Below, in pieces: positions 31,987-63,442 of a stretch of 64,000 nt of DNA. Location of the stretch: positions 71,516 through 135,515 of the forward strand of contig JAGSHN010000023.1 in NCBI GenBank assembly GCA_029855935.1, read 5' to 3'. Source of the stretch: Candidatus Thorarchaeota archaeon. Lineage in GTDB: Archaea > Asgardarchaeota > Thorarchaeia > Thorarchaeales > Thorarchaeaceae. Position numbers and translations under genes: made by a program. The notes under the pieces were generated by a model. That model had not been told where the DNA came from and ran no database searches. It saw only the letters and a list, made by a program, of their open reading frames with translations. Each line of letters starts with the position of its first letter. The stretch's first letter is position 1.

Positions 31987-32688
31987 GTGAGTGACACAGC
32001 TGGTTTTCTCGACAAGTGGCTGTTCCGCATTGTGGCAGTCGCATATCTGGCCGTTGGAGCAGTCGGTACCACCTTTGTCAATCCTGAGACTCATGTCGGC
32101 TCAGCAGTGATTGTGGGAGGACTCGGGCTCATCATAGGCGGTCTCATGTTGTTGTCTTTGGCGATAGCTCCACTTGCCACTCAGTCCAGACTGGCACGCG
32201 CCTACGCCCTGTTCGCAGTCATCGGACTGGTTGTCCTGTTCCTAGTCATATTGGTGGTCAATGGAGTGTTTGGCATCTACTGGGATGAGTACTGGGGTGC
32301 CTACTATCCCGACGCCACTGGCATCTTGGTTGCAAACGCAGCCATCACACTTCTACCGCTGACCCTCATTCTCTGGCCCTGCATATGCCTGACGGCCAGG
32401 AGCCAGACAAAGAAGAAAATCATCGGACTCGCCATGTCCCGCCATGAGATATCGATGAAGGAGATTGCAGAGGAGACGGGCATACCCTCGCAGGCCGCCA
32501 AGGACGTGGTCATTGATGCGATCGCTGCGGGACGGCTGTCTGGAAACATCCGCGGGGACAAGTTTGTGAGAGCCACTGGAGCAGCTGCAGCCGCTGGCAG
32601 CGCCGTTGTGCTGGTCGTCTGTCCGTACTGTGGAGCAAAGACAGAACAGGGTCTCACCCACTGCCAGAACTGTGGTGCAAAGCTGTAG
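31987..32688 (+). CDS. 4-TM membrane protein with PCI-like winged helix and C-terminal zinc ribbon (copy 1)
   Basis: EISMKEIAEETGI...DAIAAGRLSGNI (PCI-like); CPYCG..CQNCG. Confidence 0.75.
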   Translation: MSDTAGFLDKWLFRIVAVAYLAVGAVGTTFVNPETHVGSAVIVGGLGLIIGGLMLLSLAIAPLATQSRLARAYALFAVIGLVVLFLVILVVNGVFGIYWDEYWGAYYPDATGILVANAAITLLPLTLILWPCICLTARSQTKKKIIGLAMSRHEISMKEIAEETGIPSQAAKDVVIDAIAAGRLSGNIRGDKFVRATGAAAAAGSAVVLVVCPYCGAKTEQGLTHCQNCGAKL

Positions 32689-32972: not shown

Positions 32973-33674
32973 GTGAGTAGTACGTCAGGTTCTCTTGGCA
33001 GGTGGCCCTTCCGCATTGTGGCGATCGCATATCTGGTCCTTGGAGCAGTCGGGATTACGGTCTACAATCCTGAGGTCGTTGAGGCCATAGGGATAGTTGC
33101 GGGAGTGCTCGGAATCATCATAGGTGGTCTCATGTTGCTGTCCGCGGCGATAGCTCCACTTGGCACTCAGTCCAGACTTGGACGCGCTTATGCCTTGTTC
33201 GCAGTCGTCGGACTCATTACGTTGTTCTTGGCGATTCTGGTGGGTAATGGAGTCTTTGGCGTGCGCTGGGCCAACTTCCCGGGCGTCTATCGTCTTGACG
33301 AGAGCGGCATGGTGGTGGCAAACGCCTCCACCGAACTCTTGCTGCTGACCCTCATTCTCTGGCCCTACCTGTGCGTGAGAGCCACGAACCAGACAGAGAA
33401 GAAGATCATCGGACTTGCCCTCTCCCGCTATGAGATATCGATGAAGGAGATTGCAGAGGAGACAGGCATACCCCCGCAGGCCGCGAAAGATGTGGTCATT
33501 GATGCGATTGGTGCGGGACGACTCTCCGGAAACATCCGTGGCGATACATTCGTGAGGGCCACCGGAACGGCAACGGCTGGTCGCGATGCCGTCGTGTTGG
33601 TTGTCTGTCCCTACTGCGGAGCGAAGAACGAGCAGGGTCTCACTCACTGCCAGAACTGCGGTGCAGAGCTGTAA
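32973..33674 (+). CDS. 4-TM membrane protein with PCI-like winged helix and zinc ribbon (copy 2)
   Basis: Paralog of 31987-32688. Confidence 0.75.
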   Translation: MSSTSGSLGRWPFRIVAIAYLVLGAVGITVYNPEVVEAIGIVAGVLGIIIGGLMLLSAAIAPLGTQSRLGRAYALFAVVGLITLFLAILVGNGVFGVRWANFPGVYRLDESGMVVANASTELLLLTLILWPYLCVRATNQTEKKIIGLALSRYEISMKEIAEETGIPPQAAKDVVIDAIGAGRLSGNIRGDTFVRATGTATAGRDAVVLVVCPYCGAKNEQGLTHCQNCGAEL

Positions 33675-34526: not shown

Positions 34527-35030
34527 GGTGTGACTTCAGCCTCATAAGGGTTCGTTCTCGGTCTGGCCGGGGGTCCCTTTGGTAGCGAATACTGAGCGAT
34601 ATCTTTCGTTCGAACACGTTGAAGACTACTCCAAACAGTGGATGTGTCAGTGAATGAGCAGAGTACCTAGTCGGTGAAATGGCCACAGTTGTCTATAGAG
34701 ATAGCACGACGGTCTGCTCTTCAGAGAGGGTCTCTTGCAGCGCGTAGTTCTGGTACGAGAGTGCCAACCAAGAAAGAGGTGGCCTCGGGTCAGGCTGGTG
34801 TTCAATGTGATCCCCAGCCCGTGCTTGTGCCTAGTCGCTAGACGGTGTTGTAGAATTGTCTTGCTTGTAGCAAATTGGCCAGGAACCCGTGAACCCGTGG
34901 ACACCTCCCGTGCGCAATGGTACATCACTGTAGGACCTGGTGGTCTGATTGAGGTGCCTGGGCTCCGGACCAGAGCAGGATCCGATAAGGCAGGTACCAG
35001 TGCGCATGGCCTGATGTCATCATTCGGTTT

Positions 35031-35140
35031 CTATGTGTACGCCGTCACACCACCGTGCACAACTGGAGGTTTCCAGGACGGGGTGCACACAGCGACCACC
35101 ATAACGCTTATTTTGGCGAAAATGGGTGAAAATACCTGCG
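35031..35140 (+). promoter_or_regulatory. CRISPR leader 1
   Basis: 110 nt, nearly identical and gap-free against 53039-53148 and 63443-63552. Confidence 0.9.
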
Positions 35141-36257
35141 GTTTGAATCGGACTACAACTAGGGTTGAAACCTCACTCTCCTCTCGGGTCCACGTCTGCC
35201 TCTCTGAGTTTGAATCGGACTACAACTAGGGTTGAAACCAGTCTCTCGGTCGGGCCGCCAACGCTGAAATATATGTTTGAATCGGACTACAACTAGGGTT
35301 GAAACCTGCTTGAGATAGCGGGGGGCCTCATCGATTTCTGCTGTTTGAATCGGACTACAACTAGGGTTGAAACATTGCATATTATATCTGCGTGAAATTG
35401 GCCGAGAATGTTTGAATCGGACTACAACTAGGGTTGAAACCAGAAAAGGAGAGTCATAGATGGGGTGGCCGCACTCGTGTTTGAATCGGACTACAACTAG
35501 GGTTGAAACACGATGCGCGTGTGGCGGTCGAACTGTGCCAGAATCCGTTTGAATCGGACTACAACTAGGGTTGAAACGAAGAAATCAGATGCACCTGTGA
35601 CCTCACCGCGTTTGTTTGAATCGGACTACAACTAGGGTTGAAACCAAAGACGCGGAATGCGTCAAGTGTCTTACCGCCATTGTTTGAATCGGACTACAAC
35701 TAGGGTTGAAACCTTGAGGCGGACGTCCTCTGGGTTCCCCCAGTAGGGGAGTTTGAATCGGACTACAACTAGGGTTGAAACACAGAATCATTGTGTTGGT
35801 GTTGTATATCCACGAGCAGGGTTTGAATCGGACTACAACTAGGGTTGAAACTCTGGAGGATGGCGTGTTCCATGTGTTCTTGGGCTGGTTTGAATCGGAC
35901 TACAACTAGGGTTGAAACCCAAGAGAGGCCTGAAAGACCTCGCCATCGAGGACCGTTTGAATCGGACTACAACTAGGGTTGAAACGTCGCTCGGCTCCTC
36001 CTCCCTCAAGAACCTCGTCACGGTTTGAATCGGACTACAACTAGGGTTGAAACTGTTCACGTGGCCAGACAGTTGCGCGGTCTGTTCGGTCGTTTGAATC
36101 GGACTACAACTAGGGTTCAAACCTGCTTCGGGATTGGGAAGGGGGTGTGGAGCAGGCGAGGCCAGGATCGGACCACAGTAGGACTTAGCCCAGAGCTAGC
36201 TTTGCCTGCATCTCCGGACGGTCAGGGTCTGAGTGGGACTAGCAATTGAGATGGAAC
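35141..36257 (+). CRISPR. CRISPR array 1: repeat GTTTGAATCGGACTACAACTAGGGTTGAAAC (31 nt); 15 repeats (35141-36122) plus 2 degenerate trailer repeats
   Basis: Spacers 36-39 nt; repeat 15 ends TTCAAAC; degenerate copies lie in phase at 36161-36190 and 36227-36257. Confidence 0.97.
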
Positions 36258-36406: not shown

Positions 36407-37453
36407 TCATCGATTCTCTATGCGGCCGAGCAGATCGTCTCTCTGGACCTCGCGTTTGAACCGGTCAACACTGAGGCGGCGTAGTCTCTCGTATCTCTCT
36501 CCATTCCAGTGCAGGAGATCGAATGAGCGGGTATGAGACAGCAGGCTACCAACAAGGAACGCCACGACGACAGGGCTTGCGAAGACGAGATACGGCCTCT
36601 GTCTCGCGGGGAGTATCTCAAGGATGTGTTCAATCACGATAGCAATGTACTCGGAGGCGTGCGTGATGTTCGGCGGGTCGATATGAACCCCTTCGTCAAT
36701 CTCCACGACCACGTCATATCCTTCTCTGACGAGAACCGCCCTTGTCGGACGCGATACGGCAATGGAGATGGCCACTTTCCTCCCACGCAGATGCTCAGCG
36801 ACCTCTCTGACATCCACCTGTCCGAGTAACGCTGAGAGCAGTACGTCGTCACCAGCGACTGGCAGGCCCCAGAACGTGAGACGTGTCTCGTCGCTCTCAT
36901 CGCGCTCAAATGTCTTGTCAGACTGCATTGATCTGAAGCGGTCCCAGTTGATGTGCTCCATCTGTTCGTATCTCTGGCCATCCCAGTGTAGCAGGGTGTA
37001 CTGGTCACTGTGGCCCAGAAGGTTTCCGATTATGAACGCAACGACCGTCGGGCAGGCCAGTGCCAGAGCAATAGGCACTCTTGGTGCCGAAGACAGAGAC
37101 GGTGCAACGCTTCTCTCAAGTTCCGTCAATCTACGAATGGCAGCGGCAGCGGATTCGGCCCACCAAGTCATCTTGGACGTGGGAATCTGACGGTCGGGCC
37201 TCCCAATCTCTCCTATGACATTGTAGCCAATCTTTGCTACTGCCGGAGTCGCATTCCTGCTGAAGTTGACAACGATGGCGGATGGTCGAGCGTCTGGATA
37301 GTACGCACGGACAGGGACTCGCCTTCGTCCCCTCAGCCAGTTGATCCCATCTCTCAGGCGCCACAGAACGTCTGAGATTTCAGCGGCTATTCCGACTACT
37401 GCGACCGGGTCGGGCAAGTTGACAAACCTCACATCCGAATGAGTTTCAGCCAT
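36407..37453 (-). CDS. Stand-alone SAVED-like protein of two homologous halves, with an N-terminal amphipathic helix
   Basis: ALACPTVVAFIIGNLLGH..YTLLHWDGQRY and VFASPVVVAFLVGSLLSH..FDLLHWNGERY; VVNFSR / IAVSR. Confidence 0.7.
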   Translation of the reverse strand: MAETHSDVRFVNLPDPVAVVGIAAEISDVLWRLRDGINWLRGRRRVPVRAYYPDARPSAIVVNFSRNATPAVAKIGYNVIGEIGRPDRQIPTSKMTWWAESAAAAIRRLTELERSVAPSLSSAPRVPIALALACPTVVAFIIGNLLGHSDQYTLLHWDGQRYEQMEHINWDRFRSMQSDKTFERDESDETRLTFWGLPVAGDDVLLSALLGQVDVREVAEHLRGRKVAISIAVSRPTRAVLVREGYDVVVEIDEGVHIDPPNITHASEYIAIVIEHILEILPARQRPYLVFASPVVVAFLVGSLLSHTRSFDLLHWNGERYERLRRLSVDRFKREVQRDDLLGRIENR

Positions 37454-37494
37454 AGATGTCCTGTCTATAAGTGATTGGTATACGAGTGGTGATC

Positions 37495-38466
37495 CTATCC
37501 CCCTGAGGAGCGATGGAGGCTGGCTCTGGTCTCCCCTTCCGACCTATCATCATCCGTGCCAGTGCCATAGTCTCTCCGAGCAGCGTCATTCAAAGCCAAC
37601 CCTGTCGCACCAGTGAGAAACTCCTTGATTCGCGAGACGATGTGATTCAGCGGCGGGTCGAATGCCCCCGCGATCTCCGCGTCGGACACCTGGCTCAGGA
37701 GATCCGTGAGAAGCTCGGTGGCCGCTTCTGAGAGCGTTCTCCACTCCATTCTGTTCAGCCGCTCCAGATGGTCGCTGATGCCTCCGACTGAGAGACTCGT
37801 CGGTTCGGAGTATGATAGGGCCGTGCCGAGATCTCGAAACAGACGCGCGAGCCGACGGGTCGGCTGAGCATCGGCAAAGGCTGCTACAGCCACGGTCCAC
37901 TCGATGAATGTGACGAAGGGCGTGAGATCAATGAGAGCGAAGTCCCCTCTTGCGGACGACTGCTCTGCGCTCAGGACTCTCTCAATTGACATGTCCTCTT
38001 GAGTCACGATGTAGGAGAGTGCGGCGAATGTTGCCCACTGCTCGGTCTTGTCTGCTCCTGTCACATCCACAACAAGTCGACAGCGAGTCCCTCCGAGAGC
38101 TGTCTCCTTCAGGACGGTAATTACGGTATCAACAACGTCTAGTACCCCTGCTCCGCAGGCCTCCCAGCCCTTCTCCACCATCGACCACGTACCCACGTGT
38201 CCGTCCCGTCTGAGTCCCTCCAGCTCGTCTTGAAGCGCTCCATATGTAGTAGGAACTACCAGCAAAGCTACATCAAACGGCCCAAACAATTCCGCTATGG
38301 CTGCACTCGAGTAGCGAGTCCTGCAGACAGTGTCCGGACTGGCAGGCCACACATAGTCGACCGGTCGGCGCGCGACATCATCCTCAAAGCTTAAGAGAAT
38401 ACGAATCGTGCCATTCGGAGGGTCCACCCTCCTACCGAAACCAGTCTTCCGCTTCACCTCAATCAT
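37495..38466 (-). CDS. Csx1-type CARF domain protein lacking a HEPN effector
   Basis: Aligns by eye with the CARF of 41793 (LFGPFD/LLGPFD; VVDVTGADK/TLDITFGFR; IDLTPF..IEW..AV..F); no RxxxxH motif. Confidence 0.7.
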   Translation of the reverse strand: MIEVKRKTGFGRRVDPPNGTIRILLSFEDDVARRPVDYVWPASPDTVCRTRYSSAAIAELFGPFDVALLVVPTTYGALQDELEGLRRDGHVGTWSMVEKGWEACGAGVLDVVDTVITVLKETALGGTRCRLVVDVTGADKTEQWATFAALSYIVTQEDMSIERVLSAEQSSARGDFALIDLTPFVTFIEWTVAVAAFADAQPTRRLARLFRDLGTALSYSEPTSLSVGGISDHLERLNRMEWRTLSEAATELLTDLLSQVSDAEIAGAFDPPLNHIVSRIKEFLTGATGLALNDAARRDYGTGTDDDRSEGETRASLHRSSGG

Positions 38467-39065
38467 AGACTACCACGTCCCGCGTTAGATTAACCTGCCC
38501 TCTGGTGCAGGCATAATGCACCGTCCCTGTTCCGCCCCTCGGCCACAAATTCCTGCTCTCTGCGTCGAACATCTACGTGACCTGCGTCCCAGCCCTGTTA
38601 CGGGAAACGCAGCCCGACATTCGCCCGTGTTGTGGGTCTTCGTAGTTTCCACGGAGGGCCGATGCGTATGAGAGACGCAGGTGGGCCGACGATTGGGTCC
38701 CTATCACGGGCAAGTAGTGTCGTGAACCGCATCGCTGTATCATTGTGCGATTTCTTGAGATTGAGAGAGTCAGACCGTCCAGGCAAGAAACAGCCGAAAA
38801 TGACAATAGTAGGTTAGAAAAAAAGGGGTGTAGGACCAGCAACGCTGGTCCGCTACAGGCAATAGCCAGAGATGTCCGGACGAGCCTACTCAGACCACGG
38901 TGGGTCGACGGGCTCGTCCGGCCAGTAGTGACCGATTGCACCCAACATTGTTATCGGGCATAATATGACTCAAAGGAAGAAGAAACAGAACGACCGAAAT
39001 TCGGCATACGGGACGATGTTCGGACTGTATTCCGAAATACGGACATAGGTAGTAGGTGGTAAGCG

Positions 39066-39752
39066 CTGGCAAAGGAAACAATTCTGATTGCGACACTCGG
39101 TCGCAATGAACAGGGGCGAATTGACTTCGTCCTGAGAAAGCGGGCGGCTGATAGGCTCGTCATACTGTACACTGACGAGATAGAGCAAGACGCTCGTCGG
39201 ATCAAAGAGGAGATTCAGAGGTCCGGTTCACTCCCGGTCGACCTAAGACGCGTCGAGCCGTGGAGCTTTCACAACGTCCTGTGTGAGGCTGTCAAAATTG
39301 TCAATCAGTACCCGAAGGCAACGTTCACGTACAATCCCTCGCTGGGAACCCGCATTATGAGCGCGGCCCTGTACGCAGCTGCGGCCTTCACAAAGTCTGT
39401 TCTCTTCCTCGTCAAGGAGGACGGTAGAGGCCGCGCCGTCGAAGTCGTGAACGTCTTCCCTATCACTAGGCAATCGCTGAGTGCTCCTAAGAAGAGAATA
39501 CTTGCCGTTCTGGCCGAGCGCCGGCGCGCGGCGAAGAGCGAAGAAGAGCAATGGTTTCCCTCTATGGGGGCGCTGGCGAAAGCCGTGAATCTGTCCCGGT
39601 CATCCACATCTGACCACATCAAGGTTCTGAGCGATTGGGGCTACGTGGAGGTCGATGAGGGCCGTCCGACCAGAGTCCGTTCGAAAGAGCTGGGCGAGGC
39701 CGTCCTTGAGATGGCTCGCAAATGGAAACGGGACAGGGATGCAGACAGGTGA
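39066..39752 (+). CDS. csa3: Csa3-like CARF-wHTH transcriptional regulator (CTG start)
   Basis: Frame is open from TAA 39060 and encodes ILIATLG..DRLVILY..YNPSLGTRIMS (CARF) plus ALAKAVNLSRSSTSDHIKVL (HTH); AGGTGGT SD precedes CTG 39066. Confidence 0.8.
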   Translation: MAKETILIATLGRNEQGRIDFVLRKRAADRLVILYTDEIEQDARRIKEEIQRSGSLPVDLRRVEPWSFHNVLCEAVKIVNQYPKATFTYNPSLGTRIMSAALYAAAAFTKSVLFLVKEDGRGRAVEVVNVFPITRQSLSAPKKRILAVLAERRRAAKSEEEQWFPSMGALAKAVNLSRSSTSDHIKVLSDWGYVEVDEGRPTRVRSKELGEAVLEMARKWKRDRDADR

Positions 39753-41415
39753 AGCTGCCCTGACCGACCCCAGCATAGCCCGAACCGAGACGGCTCTGAG
39801 GGACCTGTGGAGAGAGACCCTGCGAAGGTGTTCGGAGCGCTTCAGTCTGGAAGAGAGTCTCGCATCACTTGAGATCGTGATCGACGATGCAACGGGATCT
39901 CTGGCCTGGCCTCAATCGTGGAATATTGAGGTGCAGCTCCGAGAGGACACTGTGATGATTCCGGATCTCACGTCGACAGCGGCCCCCCTGATACGCGGTC
40001 TTCTCGCAAGAGAGGCCCTTCGACTGATGCTCCCAGCTGGCGTCGTTGATGACAACGTTGTCTTCGACGTTGCCTGCGAATTCGGAAGGCAAAACCTGCG
40101 CGGACAGCTGGAGCAGGAGTGGACCGAGCGCTGGCGGGCCTCCAGCGAGTCAATCCGCCTGCCCACAGGGGCCGTCTATGACGCCATTCGCATATTTGAT
40201 CAGCTTGAACGAATGGAGGGGTCGCGTGCACTGGACAACCTCGTGAACGCGATTGCCAAGTTCGCACGTGCTGGTGTGACACTCTCTCTGGACGACTGGG
40301 TGCGGTACCTGATGGGCTATGTGATAGAGTTCACCATTCCTCTGAACAGAATCGAGATTGCCGTTGCAGATGCCCTTCTACGTGATGCGAGTACCACACG
40401 AGAGGAGATTGCTGCCCGTCTTGGGATGACTCCAGACTGGATTGGCAAAGTGGTACAGAGGATGACCGCCCGCGGACAGTTGAGGCTGTTCGAGCGGCTC
40501 TCGCTCCGTGCCCTCAACATTCGCGTACAGCATATTCTCATAGAGCCAGCAGTTGTGAGTCAGGCCGAGGGTCTGGACTTCTTCAGGAGCTGTCCCTTTC
40601 TGTATTCGTCGTGGAGGGTCATAGGCGGTCGAGGCGGGATTCTCATCACTCTTGCAGTTCCTGACAATGACCACAATCTGCGCGCGGTCAGAACAGCTGT
40701 CAGACGTGTCGCACGGTCAGGATTCACTCTACAGACCTTCGACCGCGTCCGCGCTGCGCGACAGTACTGTTTTGACTACTACGACACAGAGACGGCTCGG
40801 TGGAGAATCGACTGGTTCTCGCTGTGGCTCGCGGCCAGACATATCAGCAGCGGCGGCAATCAGCGCCTACCCACACTGGAACTGCCAGCCCCTCCCGAGC
40901 CGCTACGCTACATCGACAACACCGACGCGCTCCTGCTCTCAGAGTTCCAAGCAGGCACCACGACCATCCGCGGCCTCAGAGACAAGATACGCTGCCGGAC
41001 ATCTGCCGTCGTCGAGAAGATGACAAAGTTTCGAGATACACGAGTCCTCGTCCAGATGTACGAGCTCAGGCACGCCGGGCTCACCGCTGACTCACTCGTC
41101 ATAGTCGAGGCTGACCGCGGTAAGGAGATAATGGGCCATCTGGCACTTCGCCTCCCGCAGACATACGTCGAGTCCACCGAGAAGGGGCCAATGCTGTTCA
41201 GGGTCACCCTCCCGGCTGACGGCGTGACCAGACTTGCCAAGATAGTCGGAGACATTGTCCCCGAACCGCAGCAGATCCACCTACTCGACAGTCCGTTGTA
41301 CGGGGGATGGAAGCTCGGGGCCTTCATCGAGGACTGGAATTTCTACCACGGCACGTGGGCGCCCCACCCCAACATTGACACGTGGCTCGAGGACATCGAG
41401 AGAAGACTGTTCTGA
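39739..41415 (+). CDS. Large regulator with an N-terminal helical domain and two Lrp/AsnC-like HTH modules
   Basis: EIAVADALLRDASTTREEIAARLGMT..IGKVVQRM and DALLLSEFQ..TIRGLRDKI..VVEKMTKF; ATG 39739 overlaps the end of csa3. Confidence 0.6.
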   Translation: MQTGEAALTDPSIARTETALRDLWRETLRRCSERFSLEESLASLEIVIDDATGSLAWPQSWNIEVQLREDTVMIPDLTSTAAPLIRGLLAREALRLMLPAGVVDDNVVFDVACEFGRQNLRGQLEQEWTERWRASSESIRLPTGAVYDAIRIFDQLERMEGSRALDNLVNAIAKFARAGVTLSLDDWVRYLMGYVIEFTIPLNRIEIAVADALLRDASTTREEIAARLGMTPDWIGKVVQRMTARGQLRLFERLSLRALNIRVQHILIEPAVVSQAEGLDFFRSCPFLYSSWRVIGGRGGILITLAVPDNDHNLRAVRTAVRRVARSGFTLQTFDRVRAARQYCFDYYDTETARWRIDWFSLWLAARHISSGGNQRLPTLELPAPPEPLRYIDNTDALLLSEFQAGTTTIRGLRDKIRCRTSAVVEKMTKFRDTRVLVQMYELRHAGLTADSLVIVEADRGKEIMGHLALRLPQTYVESTEKGPMLFRVTLPADGVTRLAKIVGDIVPEPQQIHLLDSPLYGGWKLGAFIEDWNFYHGTWAPHPNIDTWLEDIERRLF

Positions 41416-41686
41416 GAACTATGGCGCGGTTCGTGGCTCTTCACAACAAGGCCTGCTAGGCGGGCCTGCGTATGCGAAACCCGCGCCCGTGGCGATTCTC
41501 CTAGTCAAGGAATCTCTTCACGTACAGCGGCCGAGCCGCGCGTGAGTACCAGCGGTAACGGAAGCTTCGTGCAGCAACCCTGAAGTTCGAGCGTGTTTCC
41601 CATTCCGATGGACGAGTGGCATCCCCGCAAGCAACTCCCCAGTCTGAACCGTTCGCGATGGGATTACGTACCTCATACGAACACCT

Positions 41687-41697
41687 AACCTTTATAC
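41687..41697 (+). promoter_or_regulatory. TATA-like promoter of the csx1/type III operon
   Basis: AACCTTTATAC, ~95 nt upstream of csx1. Confidence 0.45.
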
Positions 41698-41792
41698 TGT
41701 ACCGTGTAGCCATTTCGTGATATGCGAAGGGGAGCGGAGAAGGCAGCCGTTTGTCACAGCGTGAACATACCACGGCCTAGGGTGTCCGTATT

Positions 41793-43493
41793 ATGACTAG
41801 GGTATTGGTTACTTCACTCGGCGCGCCGTCACGCGGCTACTCGTTGAGCACCTACCGCCTTCACAACTCGGACACTGCTCCTTGGCAAGGTAAGTTCGCG
41901 GGACTGGCTGTTCGGGACCTATTGGGACCCTTCGACAACTTGATTGTCCTTGTCACCGAGAGATCAGAGAAACACCTTGCTGAGTTCAAGAAAGCAGCGG
42001 GAGTCAGACAAGCAAGGCGTGTTCCGGTTCCCGAGCCCCTGACAGAGGGTGATCAGTACAGTGCCATTGACAAGATTGTCGGTGCTGTGGAAGAGATTGC
42101 AACTTCTGATCTCCCGGATATTCGCATAACCCTCGACATAACCTTCGGGTTCAGATCTCAGCCGCTCCTATACTTTGCCGCGCTCGCCTTCTTGAAGGAA
42201 CTTCAAGGGGCTGAAGTGGAACACGTTGTTTATGCTCACCGGAAAGACCCCGCCAGGGACGAGTACGAGATTGTCGAGCTCACGCCGGCCTACGAGATGA
42301 TTGACTGGGCATATGCCGTCAGAACCTTTGTAGATTCCGGTGATACGGGGTACTTGGCAAGAATCTTGGACCGGAGGGTGCAGATGCTACGTGCTAGAGG
42401 AGAACCTTTCAAGACGGTAGATGACATTCGCAAGTGTCTGAGCGGCTTCTCGAACCTCGTTGGTGCGGCATTGCCGATAGAGCTTGGTAACGCAGCCAAG
42501 TCACTTCTGGACAAACTCGATCGGCGCAGGGAAGAACTGCGAGAGGCCAAGATCTTCTGGCGACTCATTGACTCGTTGACTGAGGTGGGAGAGCAACTCT
42601 CGTGCTCCCTGCTTGCTAGGAACAAGGCCACGATTCCTCTGACACGTGAGGTGATTGAACACCAGATTCGCGTCACCGAGTGGGCGCTCTCGCACAACCA
42701 GATTGCGAACGTCGTGGCCATACTCCGAGAGGCGGCAATCAATCTGATACTGCTCAGGCGCTCGTCTGAGAGATGGCTTGACAGGAGCGAGAGAGAAGAG
42801 GCCGCCTATCTTCTATCGTCAATGGAGCGAATGATGAAGAGAGGGGACCTCAGAGACAGGCTGACCGACTTTCAACAGGAGTTCCTGGCTGCATTCGTAA
42901 GAATCAGAGATCACAGAAACAGGATGGCCCACTGTGGCTTCACTGAGAACAGGGTCAGTCTTACAGGTCTGGACGATGACATCAGGAACTTTGTTGAAGT
43001 GCTGCGCAGGGGCCTTGACGAGCTACAGCTGCCGCAGCAGGGGACTGCACACATACTGGTGAGCCCGCTGGGGCTCTCGATTGGCAGCCTCTACACCGCT
43101 CTGTTGGCAACCCAGCCCGACCATCTCATCGCCCTTGTGACAAAGAAGTCGCGGGGTTCATTGAAGTCGGTCCTAGAGGCCGCCAGTTTCCCTGAGTCCG
43201 AAACCACAGTCCTTGACGTCAAAGACCCTCACGCAGGCTTCGAGGAGATACCGTCGCTCGTCAGCAGGGCGGAGGACACGATCATCTCCGCGCGGGTGGT
43301 CATCGGGAACATCACGGGCGGGACCACAATGATGAGTGAGGCTGTCCGCGCGATTCTCGAGATGGCCAGATCGTACGCGGTACAGACCAAGACCTATGCT
43401 ATGGTCGACAGAAGACCGTTGGAGGAACAGAAACGTAATCCCTTCGTCAAGGGCGAGGCGTTTCAGATCAATGGATGTGTGAATGATGACTGA
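41793..43493 (+). CDS. csx1: Csx1 (CARF-HEPN RNase) with an extra C-terminal Crn1-like CARF domain
   Basis: LDITFGFRSQP (CARF); HRNRMAHCG (HEPN); C-terminal SPLGLSIG..NITGGTTMM. Confidence 0.85.
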   Translation: MTRVLVTSLGAPSRGYSLSTYRLHNSDTAPWQGKFAGLAVRDLLGPFDNLIVLVTERSEKHLAEFKKAAGVRQARRVPVPEPLTEGDQYSAIDKIVGAVEEIATSDLPDIRITLDITFGFRSQPLLYFAALAFLKELQGAEVEHVVYAHRKDPARDEYEIVELTPAYEMIDWAYAVRTFVDSGDTGYLARILDRRVQMLRARGEPFKTVDDIRKCLSGFSNLVGAALPIELGNAAKSLLDKLDRRREELREAKIFWRLIDSLTEVGEQLSCSLLARNKATIPLTREVIEHQIRVTEWALSHNQIANVVAILREAAINLILLRRSSERWLDRSEREEAAYLLSSMERMMKRGDLRDRLTDFQQEFLAAFVRIRDHRNRMAHCGFTENRVSLTGLDDDIRNFVEVLRRGLDELQLPQQGTAHILVSPLGLSIGSLYTALLATQPDHLIALVTKKSRGSLKSVLEAASFPESETTVLDVKDPHAGFEEIPSLVSRAEDTIISARVVIGNITGGTTMMSEAVRAILEMARSYAVQTKTYAMVDRRPLEEQKRNPFVKGEAFQINGCVNDD

Positions 43494-44523
43494 GAATGAA
43501 ACTAATGTTTCCGAACTGATCCAGCTCGTGGGTTCCAACCCCCTCCCGCTGTACATAAGCGCTTCCACGCTCCGGCCGAATATCGTCTATCTCCTGTGTA
43601 CTGACGAAACAAGGCCTGTGGCGGAACGGCTTCAACGAGAGTACAAGAAGTATAACATCGGCGCGGAACTACTGTTCATCAGAGATGCGACCAGCCCTCT
43701 GAGCTGCGAAACGGTGGTCACCGACAGACTGTCGAATGCCTTTCTCGACTACACTGGTGGCACCAAGGTCATGGCCGTCAACGTCTACCGTGCCTGGTCT
43801 CAGCACAGAGGCACTCTCAGCCGAGCGTGCTATGTGGACTCTGAGAAGGACGTACTCCGATTCGGTGATGGCAAGAATGTCCCGATCACTACGGAGCTGT
43901 CACTCGACCTGCTTGTCAGACTGCACGGTTTCCGGCTGTTGGAAACGAGGTCTTCCCTACCAGATGCCGATAGAATGCGTGAACTTGACAAAGAGGTCGA
44001 GAAGTATCTCGAAGCGATTGAACGCGGGGAGAAGACAGATCGAACTGCTGATGGGTTTTGGTTCGAGGAATGGGTCGCAGGCCTTTTGAAGCACAGACTT
44101 GATACACCTCTGAAGGTATATTGGGGAGCAAGAATTGCGCCACCTCACGCGCCCGGGATGGAACTCGATGTTGTGGCCATAAGGGGCCACAAGACCTTCG
44201 TGCTATCCTGCACAATCGGACCCAAATATGATCCCGCAAAGAGAAAAGCCTTCGAGGTCATTCTGCGATCTCATCAGATTGGGGGCAATCACGCAAGGGC
44301 GGCTCTCGTTAGTCCCATAGACATAGTTATGAACCCAAGTCCGAGTCGGTGGAGCTCTGACGAACTCATTGACCAAGCCTACAATCTTGAGAGTAGTGTC
44401 AAGTCACACTGGAATGATCCTATCGCCTTCAAGGTGTTCTCCCGGTCAGACATTGAGGAGTGGGTGGGTTTCGCTGGGGCCAAGAAGAAGGTCGATTCTC
44501 TGAGGAGATGGATTGAGTCATAG
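43483..44523 (+). CDS. can2: Can2/Card1-like CARF-PD(D/E)xK nuclease
   Basis: LVGSNPLP, DYTGGTKVM; GFWFEEWV..ELDVV..LSCT. Confidence 0.8.
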   Translation: MMTENETNVSELIQLVGSNPLPLYISASTLRPNIVYLLCTDETRPVAERLQREYKKYNIGAELLFIRDATSPLSCETVVTDRLSNAFLDYTGGTKVMAVNVYRAWSQHRGTLSRACYVDSEKDVLRFGDGKNVPITTELSLDLLVRLHGFRLLETRSSLPDADRMRELDKEVEKYLEAIERGEKTDRTADGFWFEEWVAGLLKHRLDTPLKVYWGARIAPPHAPGMELDVVAIRGHKTFVLSCTIGPKYDPAKRKAFEVILRSHQIGGNHARAALVSPIDIVMNPSPSRWSSDELIDQAYNLESSVKSHWNDPIAFKVFSRSDIEEWVGFAGAKKKVDSLRRWIES

Positions 44524-44538
44524 GAGTGATGATGGTAA

Positions 44539-46161
44539 ATGGGTATTCTAACGCTTGTGGACCTGCTTGGAATTCAGAGGTTCATCTTTGAGTCAAACCG
44601 GCTGAGGGATATTCTTGCCGGGTCTATGCTCGTACGCAAAGCGAGTACTGAAATTCTCTCTGACTTTGCGCAACGTTCAGGCCAGGTTGTCTACAGTGCA
44701 GGAGGCACGGGACTGATCCGATTCGAGGCAATGGAGGACGCACGGGAGTTTGCGGGAAGATATACTCGCTGGCTATTCGACAAAGCACCGGGTCTGGATG
44801 CTGCTATTCTCCACAAGAACTATGACGGCAATGGCGACTTCATCGGAACCATAGAGGACCTGGGCGAGCAGATGAGTCTGCTAAAGCTTCGCCGCAGGCG
44901 ACAACTCCCTCTCGGCGGTCTTGGCGTGACCGAGTCCTGCTATGAGACCGGCCAGCCAGCTGTCGCCTTCGACCGGGAGAGTACCAACTCCGTGCCCGTC
45001 GAGCCTCCACTTCCAGACGATTCTCACCAGACAAGACCCATCTCTGCATCTGTCAAGGCTCGACGCGCTGCTGACCTTGAGCGCCAGTCTGATGAGAGGT
45101 GGGTGAGGTTCCTTCCTAGCACTGAGGTTGAGATACGTGGTGAGGAGGTTCAACTTGAATTCCCGAAGGACCTAGACCACCTTGGGCGAAGCCGCACCGA
45201 GAAGAGCCTGATGGCAGTTGTCCACATAGATATGAACGATACAGGTGAGAAACTGCGAAAGATGCAGGAAACCCTCAGGGGGGAGAAAGAGGAAACAGCA
45301 AGGGCGCGCATCAAAAGCACATCTGAGCAGATCAAGAACATAGCTGCAAAAGCATTCAGGGTATGCGTCCAGAGAGTTGTGAAGTCAATAGTCGCTGAGA
45401 AGAAGGACGACGGTCGCCACTACTACATCCAGCACGCAAAGGCGACAAGCAAATTCGAGCTACTCTATCACGACGGCACTCTCTCATTGCCTCTACGCCC
45501 AATAGTCCTTGGAGGCGATGACCTGACCATAGTCTGTGATGCTCGTATAGCATTTGATCTTGCGGCAGCAGCTCTGGAGGAGTTTGAGAGAGGAAACATA
45601 GAGGGCGTCGGTCAGATCACTGGTTGCGCGGGCATAGCGATAGGACGGACTCATACGCCTTTCTTCAGACTCTATCAGCGTTCCGAGGAGCTCTGCAGAA
45701 ACGCCAAGCGGTGGCGCCACGCCGCAGACTATGCTGGTTCAGCCCTTGATTGGCATATCGAATATGGGCAGTCAATCGGACCAATCGAGGAGCTGCGTGC
45801 GCGGTACCTGAAACCCATTTCATCGGCATCACAGGAGTTCACAACATACCGGTTCACATGTCGTCCATATCCGCTTGACTATGATGACGAGTATCTGTCT
45901 TGGAGATGGCTATCGGACACATTCCTGTGTGGTCCCAACGGCCTTCAGACCGGGTCCTGGGCCGAGCGTCGCAACAAGGTCTACAGGCTGAGAGAGGCAG
46001 CACTTGAGGGCGAGGATGTTGTCAAAGGACTGCTCGAACGATGGAAGCGACTCGGCGACAATCTGAGGCTGCCAGCCGAGATAGGCAATGGGTACTTCAA
46101 GAATCAGACTCCGGTCCTTGACGCGGTGGAGCTGGTGAGTCTGTACTTCAAGTTGAGGTGA
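44539..46161 (+). CDS. cas10: Type III-D Cas10, HD-less, intact cyclase motif
   Basis: DLLGIQRFIF..NRLRDI.GS, VHIDMN, PIVLGGDDL; 540 aa with no N-terminal HD domain. Confidence 0.93.
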   Translation: MGILTLVDLLGIQRFIFESNRLRDILAGSMLVRKASTEILSDFAQRSGQVVYSAGGTGLIRFEAMEDAREFAGRYTRWLFDKAPGLDAAILHKNYDGNGDFIGTIEDLGEQMSLLKLRRRRQLPLGGLGVTESCYETGQPAVAFDRESTNSVPVEPPLPDDSHQTRPISASVKARRAADLERQSDERWVRFLPSTEVEIRGEEVQLEFPKDLDHLGRSRTEKSLMAVVHIDMNDTGEKLRKMQETLRGEKEETARARIKSTSEQIKNIAAKAFRVCVQRVVKSIVAEKKDDGRHYYIQHAKATSKFELLYHDGTLSLPLRPIVLGGDDLTIVCDARIAFDLAAAALEEFERGNIEGVGQITGCAGIAIGRTHTPFFRLYQRSEELCRNAKRWRHAADYAGSALDWHIEYGQSIGPIEELRARYLKPISSASQEFTTYRFTCRPYPLDYDDEYLSWRWLSDTFLCGPNGLQTGSWAERRNKVYRLREAALEGEDVVKGLLERWKRLGDNLRLPAEIGNGYFKNQTPVLDAVELVSLYFKLR

Positions 46162-46168: not shown

Positions 46169-46795
46169 TTGATTCCCCGTGAGTTGACGATTGAGCTCCT
46201 TTCTGACAGTGCATTCGGCGGCGACACTGGTGTCACTGTCGATAGAGAGGTCACACACGATGAAACTGGTCTACCGTTCATTCCCGGCAAGAGTATTCGC
46301 GGGCTACTGAGAGATACCTGGCTATCAATGCATCACTGCTTCCCCTCATTGTGGGAGGCTGCTGCACGGGTGCTCGGACGACCCAAACGCCTTGACGAGC
46401 ACTGTATCCTCCGCATAGGTGACGCTCTGCTCGAACCTGCTGTGAGGGAGTGGGTCCTATACGGCCTATCGAAGGGCACACGCCTCACATCCGACCTCGT
46501 TCTTGAGGCTCTCACCGACATTCGGACTCAGACGGCTGTTGACCGTGTCAGAGGGGCACCGAAGAAGGGGACACTCCGTAGCACTCGTGTCATATTGAGA
46601 GGTGTGAAGCTGCGAAGCCATCTGGAATGGCTCGGAGAACCGACAAAGGACGACCTGCGCGTTCTTGCCCTCTGCGCTCTGGGTACCCGACAGGCCGGGT
46701 TGTCTTCCAACCGGGGACTGGGCCACATCAGAATGCTTCTCGACAACAGTTTGCACCAGACAAGGAAACTGGCCAGACTGGAGGGGGGACAATGA
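46169..46795 (+). CDS. csm3: Type III-D Cas7-family RAMP
   Basis: VDREV..GLPFIPGKSIRGLLR, GLSSNRGLG. Confidence 0.88.
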   Translation: MIPRELTIELLSDSAFGGDTGVTVDREVTHDETGLPFIPGKSIRGLLRDTWLSMHHCFPSLWEAAARVLGRPKRLDEHCILRIGDALLEPAVREWVLYGLSKGTRLTSDLVLEALTDIRTQTAVDRVRGAPKKGTLRSTRVILRGVKLRSHLEWLGEPTKDDLRVLALCALGTRQAGLSSNRGLGHIRMLLDNSLHQTRKLARLEGGQ

Positions 46796-48414
46796 GTAAC
46801 TACTATCCGTTTGTTCTGCATCTTACCGCCCCAGCAATCATTCGTGATATTGGTCAGGACCCGTCCTGCGCGACGTCTATGGCATACATTCCGGGCTCAA
46901 CGATACGCGGTGCCCTTGCCTTCCGGGTGAAGAAGACCGCTCCGGACCTATTCGATAGGATTGTGTTGTCAGATGAGGTTAGGTTCCTCAATGCGTACCC
47001 GTATGTCGATCAGAAGAGGTTCCTACCAACGCCAGTTTCCTACGCACGAGAGAAATACAGTCACCCGGAGGTCATCTGGGACCGCGCAGCCCTCAATACA
47101 CAGATCGCTGGTCTTGTTCCGATCAGTAGACCTTTCTGCTCCTTGGTAGAACCGTCGGTACTGCTGTACACGCCAGCGATGGGACGACGGCTACATCACT
47201 TGCGCGACCGAAAGGCGGGTCTTGCCCACGGCAAGAACGAGAATCAGGTAGGCACAGTCTACTGGAACGAATATCTGGAGAGCGACCAAGACTTCTGCGG
47301 GGCAATCTATGTTCGCGATGGAGCGGAGACCGAGAGAATTGTGGACACCCTCAGGGAGTGTACATCGCAGCCTCTGTTGCTCGGACGCGCGAAGCGCAGC
47401 GGCTACGGAGGCCTGGCCACTGTAGAGTGGCAGCAGCCTGTGCGGCGCGAAGTCCTTCTGACCGGGAGACGGGATGTTGCAAGGAGCATTGATACCGGAG
47501 CGTACTTCAGAGTCGTACTGCTATCTGACTGTGTTTCAGTCAATCACGAGACCGGCGAGATCGACCCGTACAGTTCCATCACCGAACTCCTAAGGCAACT
47601 CAAAGGACGTGCCGATCTGCAGGCGATATTCTCAGGTACACGGCTCATCGGAGGATTCAACAGGACGTGGAGGCTTCAGACACCTCAGGAATGGGCTCTT
47701 GCTGCAGGCTCGGTTCTTGTTCTCCGGGCGACTGATACAATTGATGAGCAGACAATCCTCGACATAGAAGATCGTGGTCTAGGACTGCGCAGAAATGAGG
47801 GGTTTGGCCGGATAGTGTTCCTAGCCCACGCCCGAAATCGATTGTCACTCCAGACCGCCCCGACCGAGAAACCAGTAGCACCCGAAGGCAGCCCGCCAAA
47901 ACTGGTACTTCAAATTGAGAAAAGAATCATCTGGAATCAGCTCGTCCGCCAGTGCCAGATTCGCGCGTCGATGATTGCCGACGGAGTGCAGAGGCTTCCC
48001 AGTCCGAGCCTGCTCTCAAGGCTCTTGAGCGCTCTCTATAGCAAGGACAATGCGCTTGCGACGCTCAGCGAATGGCTGGGAGATAACGAGGAAAAGCAGT
48101 TGAAGAGTGACGCGATGAAGCAGCTGAAGGTAGCAAAGTTCAGACCTCCCGCGTGCTCAAGCGGCACAAGGACGAATCTGCGAGAATTCATTCGAAAGAT
48201 CATCAGGGCTGCCGAAGGGCGCAGAGAGAGGCCGAAACATCCTGAGGACCGCGAGTACTTCGAAACTATCATTGAAACCGAGAGAATCTCAAGGGAGTTC
48301 GGCATAAGGGACGAAGCAAGGACTCCAGAGACACGCGACCTTGTCCTGAAGTTCTTGGAGGCCTTTCTCGGAGCACTGGTGTACAAGGCCAACATCAGGA
48401 GGCGTGACAAGTAA
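46792..48414 (+). CDS. csx10: Csx10 (Cas5-family RAMP) with a probable fused Cas11-like C-terminal helical domain
   Basis: YIPGSTIRGALA, LGRAKRSGYG, GLGLRRNEGFG; C-terminal LPSPSLLSRL helical region; ATGA overlap with the upstream gene. Confidence 0.85.
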   Translation: MSNYYPFVLHLTAPAIIRDIGQDPSCATSMAYIPGSTIRGALAFRVKKTAPDLFDRIVLSDEVRFLNAYPYVDQKRFLPTPVSYAREKYSHPEVIWDRAALNTQIAGLVPISRPFCSLVEPSVLLYTPAMGRRLHHLRDRKAGLAHGKNENQVGTVYWNEYLESDQDFCGAIYVRDGAETERIVDTLRECTSQPLLLGRAKRSGYGGLATVEWQQPVRREVLLTGRRDVARSIDTGAYFRVVLLSDCVSVNHETGEIDPYSSITELLRQLKGRADLQAIFSGTRLIGGFNRTWRLQTPQEWALAAGSVLVLRATDTIDEQTILDIEDRGLGLRRNEGFGRIVFLAHARNRLSLQTAPTEKPVAPEGSPPKLVLQIEKRIIWNQLVRQCQIRASMIADGVQRLPSPSLLSRLLSALYSKDNALATLSEWLGDNEEKQLKSDAMKQLKVAKFRPPACSSGTRTNLREFIRKIIRAAEGRRERPKHPEDREYFETIIETERISREFGIRDEARTPETRDLVLKFLEAFLGALVYKANIRRRDK

Positions 48415-49873
48415 GATGAATCCAGCTGGGCAACTAGAGATCGACAAGACTATGACAGATGATGGCGGCGTTCGTTCCATTGTGGCACGTTGGGTGATCA
48501 CCGGAACACTAACGACGAGATCCCCTGTCCTGATTGGCGGTGCACTAGAGTCCGAGATTCTCGACAATGAGATTCTGCGGAGAAAGTACTCAGGCGAACC
48601 ATTCATTCCCGGTGCTACGCTGGCTGGTGCTCTCAGAAACTATCTTATGGATGTTCTTGCAGGATATGGCCAGTCGGACTCGGACATCGATATCTCGGAC
48701 CTGTTTGGTTCCCCTCACGAGAGCGAGGACCCGTGGCAGAGTTCGCTCATAGCATTTGACGCAGTGGCCGAGAAATGCCATCTCACAGAGATTCGGCACG
48801 GTGTCGCGATTGACAGCCGAACTGGTACCGCAGAGGAACACAAGAAGTTCACATACGAGGTTCTTCCGGCGGGGGTTGAATTCCCAATCCGATTTGACCT
48901 CGTCGTTGAAGCGTCCGATGACGAGATTGTTCTGTTGGAGAAGCTGGTCAAGGCACTGGAGGGCTTGGAGAATGGCGACATCCGATTCGGGATGAAAAAG
49001 AGTAGAGGTCTTGGTGAATGCGTCTGCAGCGACTGGCGGGTGAAGAGATTTGACCTCAGGTCAAAACAAGGGTGGCTTGACTGGGTTTCAACAGACCATC
49101 GAAGACCACTGGACGGTGATGCAAGGAAAAGCATTCGAGATGCGGTTTCCAGCGAGCTGGACAAAACAGTAGAGGACCTCCCAGACAGGCGGCAACGAGC
49201 AGTCTTTCGTCTGGAGCTGGACGCTAGAGGTCCACTGATAATTCGTTCACCGGGAACCAGCGCCGACGACCCCGACGCCTCACACCTACTCTCAGGGACT
49301 CAGCCCGTGGTCAGTGGAACGGCTCTGGCCGGGGTGTTGAGGACAAGAGCACTCCAGATTGCCCAGACAGTGAAGGGAGAGGATGGTCGCAGGCTCGTAG
49401 ACAGTCTGTTCGGGCCGCAACTTGGTAGTGACACAGAGAAGGCACGCAGATCTCGTGTTCAGGTGACAGAGGCCAGCATAGAATCAGCAAAGAGCCTTCA
49501 GCCCACCCGTGTACGGATAGATAGGTTCACTGGTGGATCGATGCACGGACTCCTGTTCACCGAGAGACTGGTCTATGGCGGAGAATTCTCTCTCACTATC
49601 GAGGTGAGGAATCCCACTGCGGCCGATATCGGACTGCTTCTGCTTGTGTTCAGAGACCTTGTGACAGGTCAATTGCAGATTGGGGGTGAGAGTTCCGTGG
49701 GACGGGGCATCACAACTGGGAGACTCACAATAGAAGAGATTCGACTCGATGATGAAACTTTGACCGGTATCACCGTGGCTCCGGGGGAAGTCTGCAAGGA
49801 GGCAGCACGGCTTGAAGAGTTCGTGGCAGAATTCCTCGGTGGGGCTGGCAAGAACGTTGGGGGTGAACGCTAG
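48404..49873 (+). CDS. csm3: Double-RAMP Cas7-Cas7 fusion (type III-D)
   Basis: Two RAMP units: IPGATLAGALR..FGMKKSRGLG and VSGTALAGVLR..IGGESSVGRG. Confidence 0.88.
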   Translation: MTSKMNPAGQLEIDKTMTDDGGVRSIVARWVITGTLTTRSPVLIGGALESEILDNEILRRKYSGEPFIPGATLAGALRNYLMDVLAGYGQSDSDIDISDLFGSPHESEDPWQSSLIAFDAVAEKCHLTEIRHGVAIDSRTGTAEEHKKFTYEVLPAGVEFPIRFDLVVEASDDEIVLLEKLVKALEGLENGDIRFGMKKSRGLGECVCSDWRVKRFDLRSKQGWLDWVSTDHRRPLDGDARKSIRDAVSSELDKTVEDLPDRRQRAVFRLELDARGPLIIRSPGTSADDPDASHLLSGTQPVVSGTALAGVLRTRALQIAQTVKGEDGRRLVDSLFGPQLGSDTEKARRSRVQVTEASIESAKSLQPTRVRIDRFTGGSMHGLLFTERLVYGGEFSLTIEVRNPTAADIGLLLLVFRDLVTGQLQIGGESSVGRGITTGRLTIEEIRLDDETLTGITVAPGEVCKEAARLEEFVAEFLGGAGKNVGGER

Positions 49874-50479
49874 ATGATAGCAAATGTGGACTGTATGGGA
49901 CTCGAGATTCGGGAACTTGAGAATCCAGACGACCTTCTCGACTGGTTGCTAGGTGGGGATGAACCTGCAGATCAGTCACACCACGACCTTGTCAATGGAC
50001 TGAGATGGGCACTGGTCTACACAACGGAGAGCATCGTGTGGGGAAAGATTCAGGATGGGAGATGGACGCTCGCGTCAAGCGTGTTCCCCGACACGCTCGT
50101 TTCACCGACCCACGACAATTTCCTTCGCGTCAGAATGTTTGGACCCCGTCTCGAGGTCAGAATATGGCGCCACGAGGAACAACTAATTGGTCGTGTCCTG
50201 GCTGATCAGCCCTCATTCCAAGGACCGGAGTGGCTTGAGCCGTGCGAACAGGAGTTCCTCCTTGTAGGCGACACCCTCGAAAGGTCCTCTGACAGGTTCT
50301 CGCTGGTCATCGGGAGGTCGGGCAGTCAGCAGGTTCTTCCCGTCAGTGTTGAGCCTGATACGTCCGGTAGACTCTCTCGTAGGCCACGCCTTGTCGTCAA
50401 ACACTATTTTGGGTCCGACCCTGAAACAGGAGAAACAAAACGGGTGGTTTCCCGGCTTGTTGATCTAATAGGAGGTTGA
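49874..50479 (+). CDS. csx19: Type III-D Csx19
   Basis: IVWG, VRMFG..EVRIWR, VKHY..SRLV; canonical position before the large RAMP. Confidence 0.85.
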   Translation: MIANVDCMGLEIRELENPDDLLDWLLGGDEPADQSHHDLVNGLRWALVYTTESIVWGKIQDGRWTLASSVFPDTLVSPTHDNFLRVRMFGPRLEVRIWRHEEQLIGRVLADQPSFQGPEWLEPCEQEFLLVGDTLERSSDRFSLVIGRSGSQQVLPVSVEPDTSGRLSRRPRLVVKHYFGSDPETGETKRVVSRLVDLIGG

Positions 50480-52659: not shown

Positions 52660-53038
52660 GTCGGCAATAATGCAGACCTCACGGGGGAAATGGTAACCCC
52701 TCGTCGGTGAGACCCAGATAGAGGACTGCAACCACTCCGTGACGACAGCCCGTGGTACACCTACGACGGTCTTTCGGCCGGTGATTTAGTCGCCATCACC
52801 GAGCCGCTACAGCATTTGAGACGGTAGTCGCTGTTCACTGGCTACCAGCACCCGCAGGCCAAACACGGGCGCACGGCAATCCGGTACACTTGAGCCCTGT
52901 TGACTCGCAGGCGCCTCTGTGGACGGTCGTTCTACGAAGACCCGCTGACCTGACCGAGGTGGACAGACGGAGGGCCACACCGGGTCAAGATCTCTGAGCT
53001 GGCGCTTGCACGCAGAGTCCTATGCGGTCATTGAACCT

Positions 53039-53148
53039 CTATGTGTATCTTGTCACACCACCGTGCACAACTAGAGGTTTCCAGGACGGGGTGCACACAG
53101 CGACCACCATAACGCTTATTTTGGCGAAAATAGGTAAAAATACCTGCG
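53039..53148 (+). promoter_or_regulatory. CRISPR leader 2
   Basis: 110-nt homolog of leaders 1 and 3. Confidence 0.9.
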
Positions 53149-54662: not shown

Positions 54663-54663
54663 G

Positions 54664-55656: not shown

Positions 55657-55660
55657 CTCA

Positions 55661-58445: not shown

Positions 58446-58449
58446 CGGT

Positions 58450-59100: not shown

Positions 59101-59122
59101 CGTGACCACCCTCTTCACAGCC

Positions 59123-60127: not shown

Positions 60128-60129
60128 CT

Positions 60130-61584: not shown

Positions 61585-61593
61585 AGCCGTGAC

Positions 61594-63270: not shown

Positions 63271-63442
63271 GGCACTATGTCTCATCTTGCCAACAATCGA
63301 TCATCCTGGGGGCATCAGGTGCGAGTTGGGAGCGACCGTGGACTGGCAAGCGTAAGGCCCACCAATATGATCGAGAAGCCGGGTTAGGGACTAGAACAAC
63401 TCAAGGCTAACGTCTGTGCGAGATCCGATGCCATTGGCCTAT

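Follow-up and report, generated by a model that had tools for sequence, protein, structure and literature searches.

Here we analyse 64,000 nucleotides (nt) of DNA from a Candidatus Thorarchaeota archaeon (hereafter, the window), which form the final 64 kb of contig JAGSHN010000023.1 within a 2.97-Mb, 97%-complete genome and whose right half is occupied by a CRISPR island. Positions 36407–44523 of the window probably constitute the cyclic oligoadenylate (cOA) signalling and control module of a type III-D CRISPR system whose Cas10 is HD-less, the host being a Thorarchaeota-like Asgard archaeon; the module would include a paired Csa3 regulator and sensors that damp the signal. The region encodes five CARF or SAVED proteins with six sensor domains in total, but the most interesting lead is not the number of sensors; it is the 558-amino-acid (aa) protein encoded next to csa3, which we call the Csa3 partner. 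A plausible though still tentative proposal is that the Csa3 of Thorarchaeota-like archaea forms a two-protein, cOA-responsive regulator with a new family of pseudo-zincin plus tandem Lrp/AsnC proteins, that the partner adds a second input (through its RAM pockets or its dead-protease cleft) for CRISPR loci of several types, and that the SAVED gene of the region, with its split homologues, captures both states of the CARF-to-SAVED transition, separate genes and a fused one. We know of no work on the control of CRISPR-Cas expression in Asgard archaea, and beyond a few model organisms such control is, to our knowledge, poorly understood. A conserved, obligate Csa3 partner, if true, would be a new accessory family and would offer a concrete way to study how cells integrate cOA signalling with a further cellular signal. 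The genes concerned, with the candidate operator, are as follows.

36407–37453, minus strand: SAVED-only protein, 348 aa, apparently an A-type half unit fused to a B-type one, with no other domain.
37495–38466, minus strand: Csx1-type CARF2 protein without a HEPN domain, 323 aa, encoded upstream of the SAVED gene and co-directionally with it, 41 nt away.
38994–39042, just upstream of csa3: candidate operator, two CCGAA-N-T(T/A)CGG palindromes 38 nt apart.
39066–39752, plus strand: Csa3, CARF3 plus winged helix-turn-helix (wHTH), with a probable CTG start 6 nt past a GGTGG box.
39739–41415, plus strand: Csa3 partner, 558 aa, zincin-like at residues 1–198 and tandem Lrp/AsnC at 204–555; its gene overlaps csa3 by 14 nt.
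41793–43493, plus strand: Csx1 with CARF-HEPN-CARF architecture (PADLOC CARF_HEPN_CARF, E = 2.7e-84).
43483–44523, plus strand: Can2, CARF4 plus PD-(D/E)xK nuclease (PADLOC CARF4--CARF_PDDEXK).
44539–46161, plus strand: Cas10d, 540 aa, GGDD present and HD domain absent.
46169–52659, plus strand: rest of the III-D effector, comprising Cas7/Csm3-like, Cas5/Csx10, fused Cas7, Csx19 (Cas11) and large Cas7.

The pairing of csa3 with its partner recurs well beyond the window. The partner, whose start most likely lies at 39739 (the database form is 558 aa), matched no family in Pfam, NCBIfam, PADLOC or the sequences of the PDB, and among papers that mention both Csa3 and Asgard archaea we found none describing such a Csa3 partner. 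HMMER searches over 1.84 billion representative proteins nevertheless recovered 105 partner clusters, nearly all of ~540 aa, and partner matches are present in 113 of 400 Asgard genomes; within the window's own family, 55 of 85 further genomes have a match, often as several paralogues. Among the loci with upstream DNA, the nine best all encode a Csa3 homologue (27–56% identical) directly upstream of the partner. In a larger set of 20 loci, of which 19 were assessable, 16 encode Csa3 just upstream of the partner and on its strand, with overlaps or with gaps of at most ~30 nt, and a second, more distant sample has the adjacency at 7 of 20 loci, in three arrangements and in two Asgard families. 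Next to the more remote members of the family, no Csa3 is encoded. Partner paralogues without an upstream Csa3 also occur at loci L025, L026 and L029; at L026, a 96-aa open reading frame (ORF) overlaps the start of the partner gene.

The same pairs are found beside CRISPR systems of several types. I-B operons neighbour the pair at L014, where it sits directly upstream of the operon, and at L030. At L032, an I-D-like operon (Csc2, Cas3, Cas6 and Csa1) has the pair at its 3′ end, with a second partner paralogue, lacking its own Csa3, 2.4 kb downstream; the same gene-size layout is seen at L024, L027, L028 and L031, a subgroup of paralogous pairs for which the Pfam assignments are those of L032. 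A III-B Cmr operon lies next to the pair at L021, Can2 is encoded near it at L023, and arrays accompany it at L013 and L015. Judged from these gene neighbourhoods, csa3 is tightly coupled to its partner beside I-B, I-D-like, III-B and III-D systems.

We modelled the partner with AlphaFold2 (AF2) from 57 homologues (predicted local distance difference test (pLDDT) 94.1, predicted template-modelling score 0.89). Residues 204–555 form two modules, each with the wHTH and the beta-alpha-beta-beta-alpha-beta RAM fold of Lrp/AsnC regulators; this segment matches NirDL (Foldseek 1e-8; VIA Z 16.7 over 283 residues) and also superposes on many single Lrp/AsnC regulators. An earlier reading of this DNA, made by a model from the letters and translations without database searches (the sequence-only reading), had called the protein a tandem-Lrp regulator, and these fold matches bear that call out. 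At the sequence level, HTH_24 matches 38 of the 57 family members and an HTH_AsnC-type profile 18 of them. The likeness is thus to the tandem NirDL/AhbAB proteins as well as to the single Lrp/AsnC or feast/famine regulatory proteins, but the partner is larger than a canonical single unit (~150 aa) and has an extra domain. Unlike NirDL, moreover, it has an added N-terminal zincin-like domain and a linkage to csa3 and CRISPR, and its two recognition helices, both basic on family average (+2.35 and +2.5), suggest DNA binding rather than the enzymatic role of NirDL.

The N-terminal domain had been missed by the sequence-only reading. VIA aligns residues 1–198 with catalytic domains from M1 aminopeptidases, from thermolysin and from TAF2, which is inactive (Z 8.3–9.3, with 9.3 to LTA4 hydrolase and 8.3 to thermolysin), and an ESM Atlas feature search with this domain gave weak, sub-0.9 leads to MA peptidases that agree with the VIA matches. 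The HExxH motif of zincin (MA clan) metallopeptidases is present in 0 of the 57 family members: the helix that would carry it reads (A)RE(A/C)(F/L)x, and D110, W128 and W132 are nearly invariant. On the model, the N-terminal domain is a predicted pseudo-protease. We propose that Csa3 and the partner work together as a transcriptional unit to which the partner would add a second ligand or protein input.

Csa3, encoded in a two-gene operon with its lineage-specific 558-aa partner, would itself be the third reader of cOA, alongside two nucleases described below. The PADLOC CARF3 profile aligns over positions 4–204 of 207 (E = 2.2e-17) and HTH_IclR/MarR matches cover the wHTH; Pfam Csa3_N scores 26.7 bits (cut-off 27), and the profile match to PDB 6w11 extends over the full length (E = 0.003). 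The stop-to-stop frame spans 39063–39752 and opens after a TAA at 39060–39062; its first ATG, GTG or TTG lies far inside the CARF domain, and the likely start is the CTG at 39066. A gene caller based on start codons would truncate the CARF domain of this Csa3. Csa3 is known to bind cA4, and cross talk from type III to type I systems has been published (PMC8844856, PMC8699464, PMC7480081). The window protein has the same CARF3 plus wHTH architecture as Csa3, Csa3a and Csa3b of Sulfolobales and Thermus, with full-length profile matches; its locus likewise combines type III and type I systems, and palindromes stand in its own promoter. It differs from them in being highly diverged, as the E value of just 0.003 to 6w11 indicates, and in being paired, often via overlapping genes, with a pseudo-zincin plus tandem-Lrp protein of 540–570 aa.

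The two palindromes, CCGAAATTCGG and CCGAAATACGG, lie 72 and 34 nt ahead of the csa3 start. Upstream regions of csa3 align in eight genomes from different genera, all with a GGAAACAG box and, after it, two or three (T/C)CGAA-N-TTCG(G/A) boxes, and these boxes are kept although the proteins of the eight genomes are just 25–41% identical. Across the 2.97-Mb genome, the strict motif occurs at 4 sites (3.3 expected), and the single paired site is that of csa3. This conservation suggests a candidate operator, and Csa3 and its partner would autoregulate through the CCGAA-N-TTCGG palindromes in their own promoter.

The sequence-only reading had gone further and proposed a single integrated control layer, not described before, to which all five sensors would belong and through which type III sensing would be relayed to the expression of the neighbouring I-B system. 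All five sensor genes do cluster between the first CRISPR array of the window (array 1) and cas10, in other organisms Csa3 responds to cA4 by regulating type I cas genes and arrays (PMC8844856, PMC7480081), and the position of the L014 pair would suit such a relay. We nonetheless consider this proposal improbable. The conserved csa3 operator is missing from the I-B and leader promoters here: the motif was found at no cas or array-leader promoter of the genome, and on this evidence from the DNA it gives no support for direct control of I-B promoters or leaders. Nor does the block recur as a unit. The predicted co-occurrence of a CARF-only protein, SAVED, csa3 and an Lrp-like gene holds in part: csa3 with an Lrp-like gene is widespread, and the CARF-only gene joins them in one other genome, but the whole block was found nowhere else and SAVED homologues were never beside csa3 at the relatives' loci examined. 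Every component class, finally, already has a described role (PMC12751052, PMC12669027, PMC11229360). Multi-effector loci, Csa3 cross talk and stand-alone CARF and SAVED ring nucleases have all been published (PMC11229360, PMC8844856, PMC8699464, PMC7480081, PMC12751052), and because of such findings on III-D systems, multiple effectors and Csa3, the general logic of that reading is established rather than undescribed. Novelty lies in three things: the partner family of Csa3 and its operator, the occurrence of SAVED in both split and fused form, and a Csx1 without HEPN.

We next consider the effector side of the module, in which target RNA would activate Cas10d through its GGDD motif to make cOA, and two nucleases co-transcribed with cas10, Csx1 and Can2, would read it. 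Cas10d begins directly with the Cmr2_N palm, matched no HD family and has GGDD visible in its translation, just as had been read from the letters. The III-D subtype call was likewise right (PADLOC Cas10d, E = 1.7e-99; Cas5_IIId, E = 4.2e-76; Csx19, E = 2.8e-17; Cas7_IIId, E = 3e-124; also NCBIfam Csx10), as was that of I-B for the neighbouring system. An HD domain is present in just 3% of III-D Cas10s, and type III loci with several effectors, including several cA4 effectors, are common (PMC11229360); an HD-less III-D Cas10 is the norm. The csx1 and can2 genes overlap by 11 nt, and 15 nt separate can2 from cas10.

Both nucleases upstream of cas10 were correctly recognised from sequence, and they are the two of the five sensor proteins with recognisable toxic domains; the remaining three are effector-less sensors or a transcription factor. 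Csx1 has the CARF-HEPN arrangement and R-x4-H motif of known Csx1 proteins (RNRMAH, residues 375–380, within the R-x4-6-H pattern). It differs in an extra C-terminal CARF domain at about residues 415–560, which the sequence-only reading did not mention and for which a sequence search found no solved relative, though PADLOC and CARF census profiles already include such an architecture. Can2 matches the Can2/Card1 structures 8q3y, 8bao and 7bdv; its E-L-D and K-x-K-x-F-E segments align with the E-x-D and K-x-K...E residues of the solved Can2-like protein 8q3y, including the Glu that is altered in the variant entry 8q41. We also considered a loss of the Can2 nuclease motif (S-C-T replacing E-x-K) and rejected it: the active-type 8q3y has the same kind of strand (S-L-T), and E-x-D and K-x-K are kept.

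Two of the effector-less sensors, the HEPN-less CARF protein and the SAVED-only protein, would damp the signal, by cleaving cOA as ring nucleases or by binding it as a sponge. They had been described as a divergent pair; their genes are in fact co-directional, and it is the two together that diverge from csa3. The 323-aa CARF protein matches only positions 11–248 of the 376-position PADLOC CARF-HEPN profile, that is, the CARF and the helical part, and lacks the R-x4-6-H motif. By these features, it is a Csx1-derived CARF protein, not a Csx1 nuclease: a second Csx1 paralogue of the window that, unlike Csx1 nucleases, is wholly without the HEPN domain. Its single orthologue, 295 aa long and 29% identical, is encoded in another genus (genome G322, locus L001), where the gene is intact, occupies the same divergent position by csa3 and the partner, and lies beside an array. 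The query matched 7 of 86 family genomes in all, two of the hits being short and the others Csx1 frames of 569–622 aa, and relatives at L016, L022 and L023 carry a divergent, full-length Csx1 at the position of the HEPN-less gene. Because the orthologue keeps its length and the other family hits are full-length Csx1 proteins, the HEPN-less CARF protein appears to be a rare but maintained derivative of the Csx1 found there in relatives. The intergenic gap between csa3 and the Csx1 or CARF-only gene is long (about 500–700 nt) in the window (38467–39065) and at L016, L022 and L023; in the window this gap holds no convincing ORF and no Rfam match.

The assignment of the SAVED-only protein rests on profiles and on fold. 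Several SAVED4 profiles of PADLOC, which stand for the CalpL/CRISPR-Lon class, match it with E values down to 1.9e-12. In Foldseek searches with its AF2 model (pLDDT 69 overall, the first half good and the second modest), the top 50 of 50 matches were SAVED proteins, led by the viral ring nuclease AcrIII-2 (9r8s). VIA aligned its two halves, residues 45–166 and 195–331, to SAVED halves with Z 8–9.3 and ~3 Å root-mean-square deviation. The family profile matches both halves of AcrIII-2 9r8s (E = 3.6e-14) and CalpL (E = 4.8e-4), and the relationship therefore holds at the sequence level. The two CARF-like halves expected of a SAVED domain are visible as an internal repeat, each half of which aligns to half-size homologues.

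Those homologues came from whole-genome searches, whereas a word-based search of 5.8 billion proteins returned the SAVED-only protein's own cluster alone. In the five other family genomes that carry them (G384, G323, G318, G324 and G322; loci L044–L048), they form divergent gene pairs of ~155–166 aa, one of A type and one of B type. Each A- or B-type gene corresponds to one half of the window protein and each half unit matches the full 104-position PADLOC SAVED4--SAVED profile; across the five genomes, the half units are 24–38% identical with invariant C/P/A/F/H/Y positions. As far as these alignments tell, the SAVED-only gene unites in one frame two half-size genes that stand as divergent pairs in relatives, and such pairs may act as heterodimeric split SAVED sensors. 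One pair (L044) adjoins a type III operon and an array, another (L047) lies between restriction-modification genes, and two have unremarkable surroundings. Split and fused SAVED genes together make a natural test case for the origin of SAVED from dimeric CARF units.

AcrIII-2 degrades cA4, as does the SAVED domain of CalpL, and the name Crn5 has tentatively been given to cellular SAVED proteins that stand alone in type III loci; the catalytic residues of AcrIII-2 are R96, K99, H128 and S194 (PMC12751052). The window protein belongs to the same stand-alone SAVED4 class inside a type III locus and has in common with AcrIII-2 a basic pair after the last strand of each half, but it is longer (348 aa against about 235), and its relatives split the halves into separate divergent genes of ~160 aa. 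Its basic pair near the R96/K99 position is one residue off register, and H128 falls beyond the aligned stretch. The profile alignment places Ala at the S194 position in both halves, which favours binding over cleavage, or a different chemistry. With these differences at the catalytic residues, the protein is not assignable to Crn5 on its sequence.

The substitution of the catalytic Ser in both halves would also suit an alternative in which the SAVED-only protein, by itself or together with the HEPN-less CARF protein, is an effector rather than an attenuator, forming filaments or attaching to the membrane on binding cOA as the transmembrane SAVED protein Cap14 does. PADLOC matches it best to SAVED4--SAVED_TM, its top fold matches include Cap14 and 3TM-SAVED, and the A-type units of relatives open with a hydrophobic helix whose 19-residue Kyte-Doolittle mean is 1.7–1.8 in three of five. 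The N-terminal segment of the window protein itself, however, is weakly hydrophobic (1.23) and contains acidic residues, its nearest sequence relative is a soluble ring nuclease, and Pfam, NCBIfam and PADLOC detected no effector domain in it. An effector role is therefore unlikely in our judgement. That both genes are decaying or strain-specific remnants without a present function we regard as very unlikely. Word-based searches of the 5.8 billion proteins gave no other cluster for either protein, the HEPN-less form occurs in just 2 of 86 family genomes, and a full-length Csx1 is encoded nearby; yet both reading frames are intact, the HEPN-less form holds its length at 29% identity in the other genus, and the SAVED half units are conserved in the five further genomes.

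By analogy, signal attenuation is the most likely role of both effector-less sensors, because AcrIII-2 and CalpL degrade cA4, ring nucleases reportedly form an important part of type III loci whose Cas10 is active (PMC12669027), and the region proteins screened gave no match to other recognised ring nuclease families. The C-terminal CARF domain of Csx1 perhaps attenuates the signal as well. A system with no recognised ring nuclease would thus have three candidates for cOA turnover: the SAVED-only protein, the HEPN-less CARF protein and the C-terminal CARF of Csx1. Several observations weigh against reading the region as a control module with damping sensors. The SAVED-only protein scores under the curated cut-offs of both Pfam SAVED (24.6 bits against 26.2) and NCBIfam SAVED (30.2 against 33), the second half of its model is modestly confident, and Ala replaces the Ser of AcrIII-2 in both halves. 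Its gene is rare (homologues in 6 of 86 family genomes), as is the HEPN-less CARF form, and the half-SAVED pairs of relatives are only sometimes near CRISPR. To these is added the lack of csa3 motifs at the cas and array-leader promoters of the genome.

The surroundings of the region fit a CRISPR island with shared components, whose remaining features are as follows.

35141–36122, plus strand: CRISPR array 1, 15 exact repeats of 31 nt, with the conserved 170-nt leader at 35003–35172.
53149–54133, plus strand: CRISPR array 2, 15 exact repeats, leader copy at 53011–53180.
54399–62349, minus strand: type I-B module of cas6, cas8b, cas7, cas5, cas3, cas4, cas1 and cas2.
63553–63991, plus strand: CRISPR array 3, reaching the end of the window and contig, leader copy at 63415–63584.

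Arrays 1 and 2 flank the sensor genes and the III-D effector operon, and arrays 2 and 3 flank the complete type I-B module. The three copies of the leader, one ahead of each array, are 82–87% identical, and the arrays have a common 31-nt repeat in two variants with the cores ACTACAACTAGG and ACTAGAAGTAGG. With a single cas6 and a single adaptation module in the window, CRISPR RNA processing and spacers are presumably common to the III-D and I-B systems. The host had been taken for a probable Asgard archaeon from the letters alone, in agreement with the nearest ESM Atlas clusters, which are mostly Candidatus Thorarchaeota, and all six genes placed at 36407–44523 are present as open frames at the positions given for them. 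An Rfam scan of the window gave no match.

The genes left of array 1 are unrelated, encoding a DNA alkylation repair enzyme, two PCI/zinc-ribbon paralogues and a P-type ATPase. The two paralogues, each of 233 aa, stand in tandem at 31987–32688 and 32973–33674 with ~75% identical DNA, weak PCI-domain matches and a C-terminal zinc ribbon (DUF7577). Further left, a 533-aa ORF at 11997–13598 contains 126-nt periodic repeats and is probably WD40-like.

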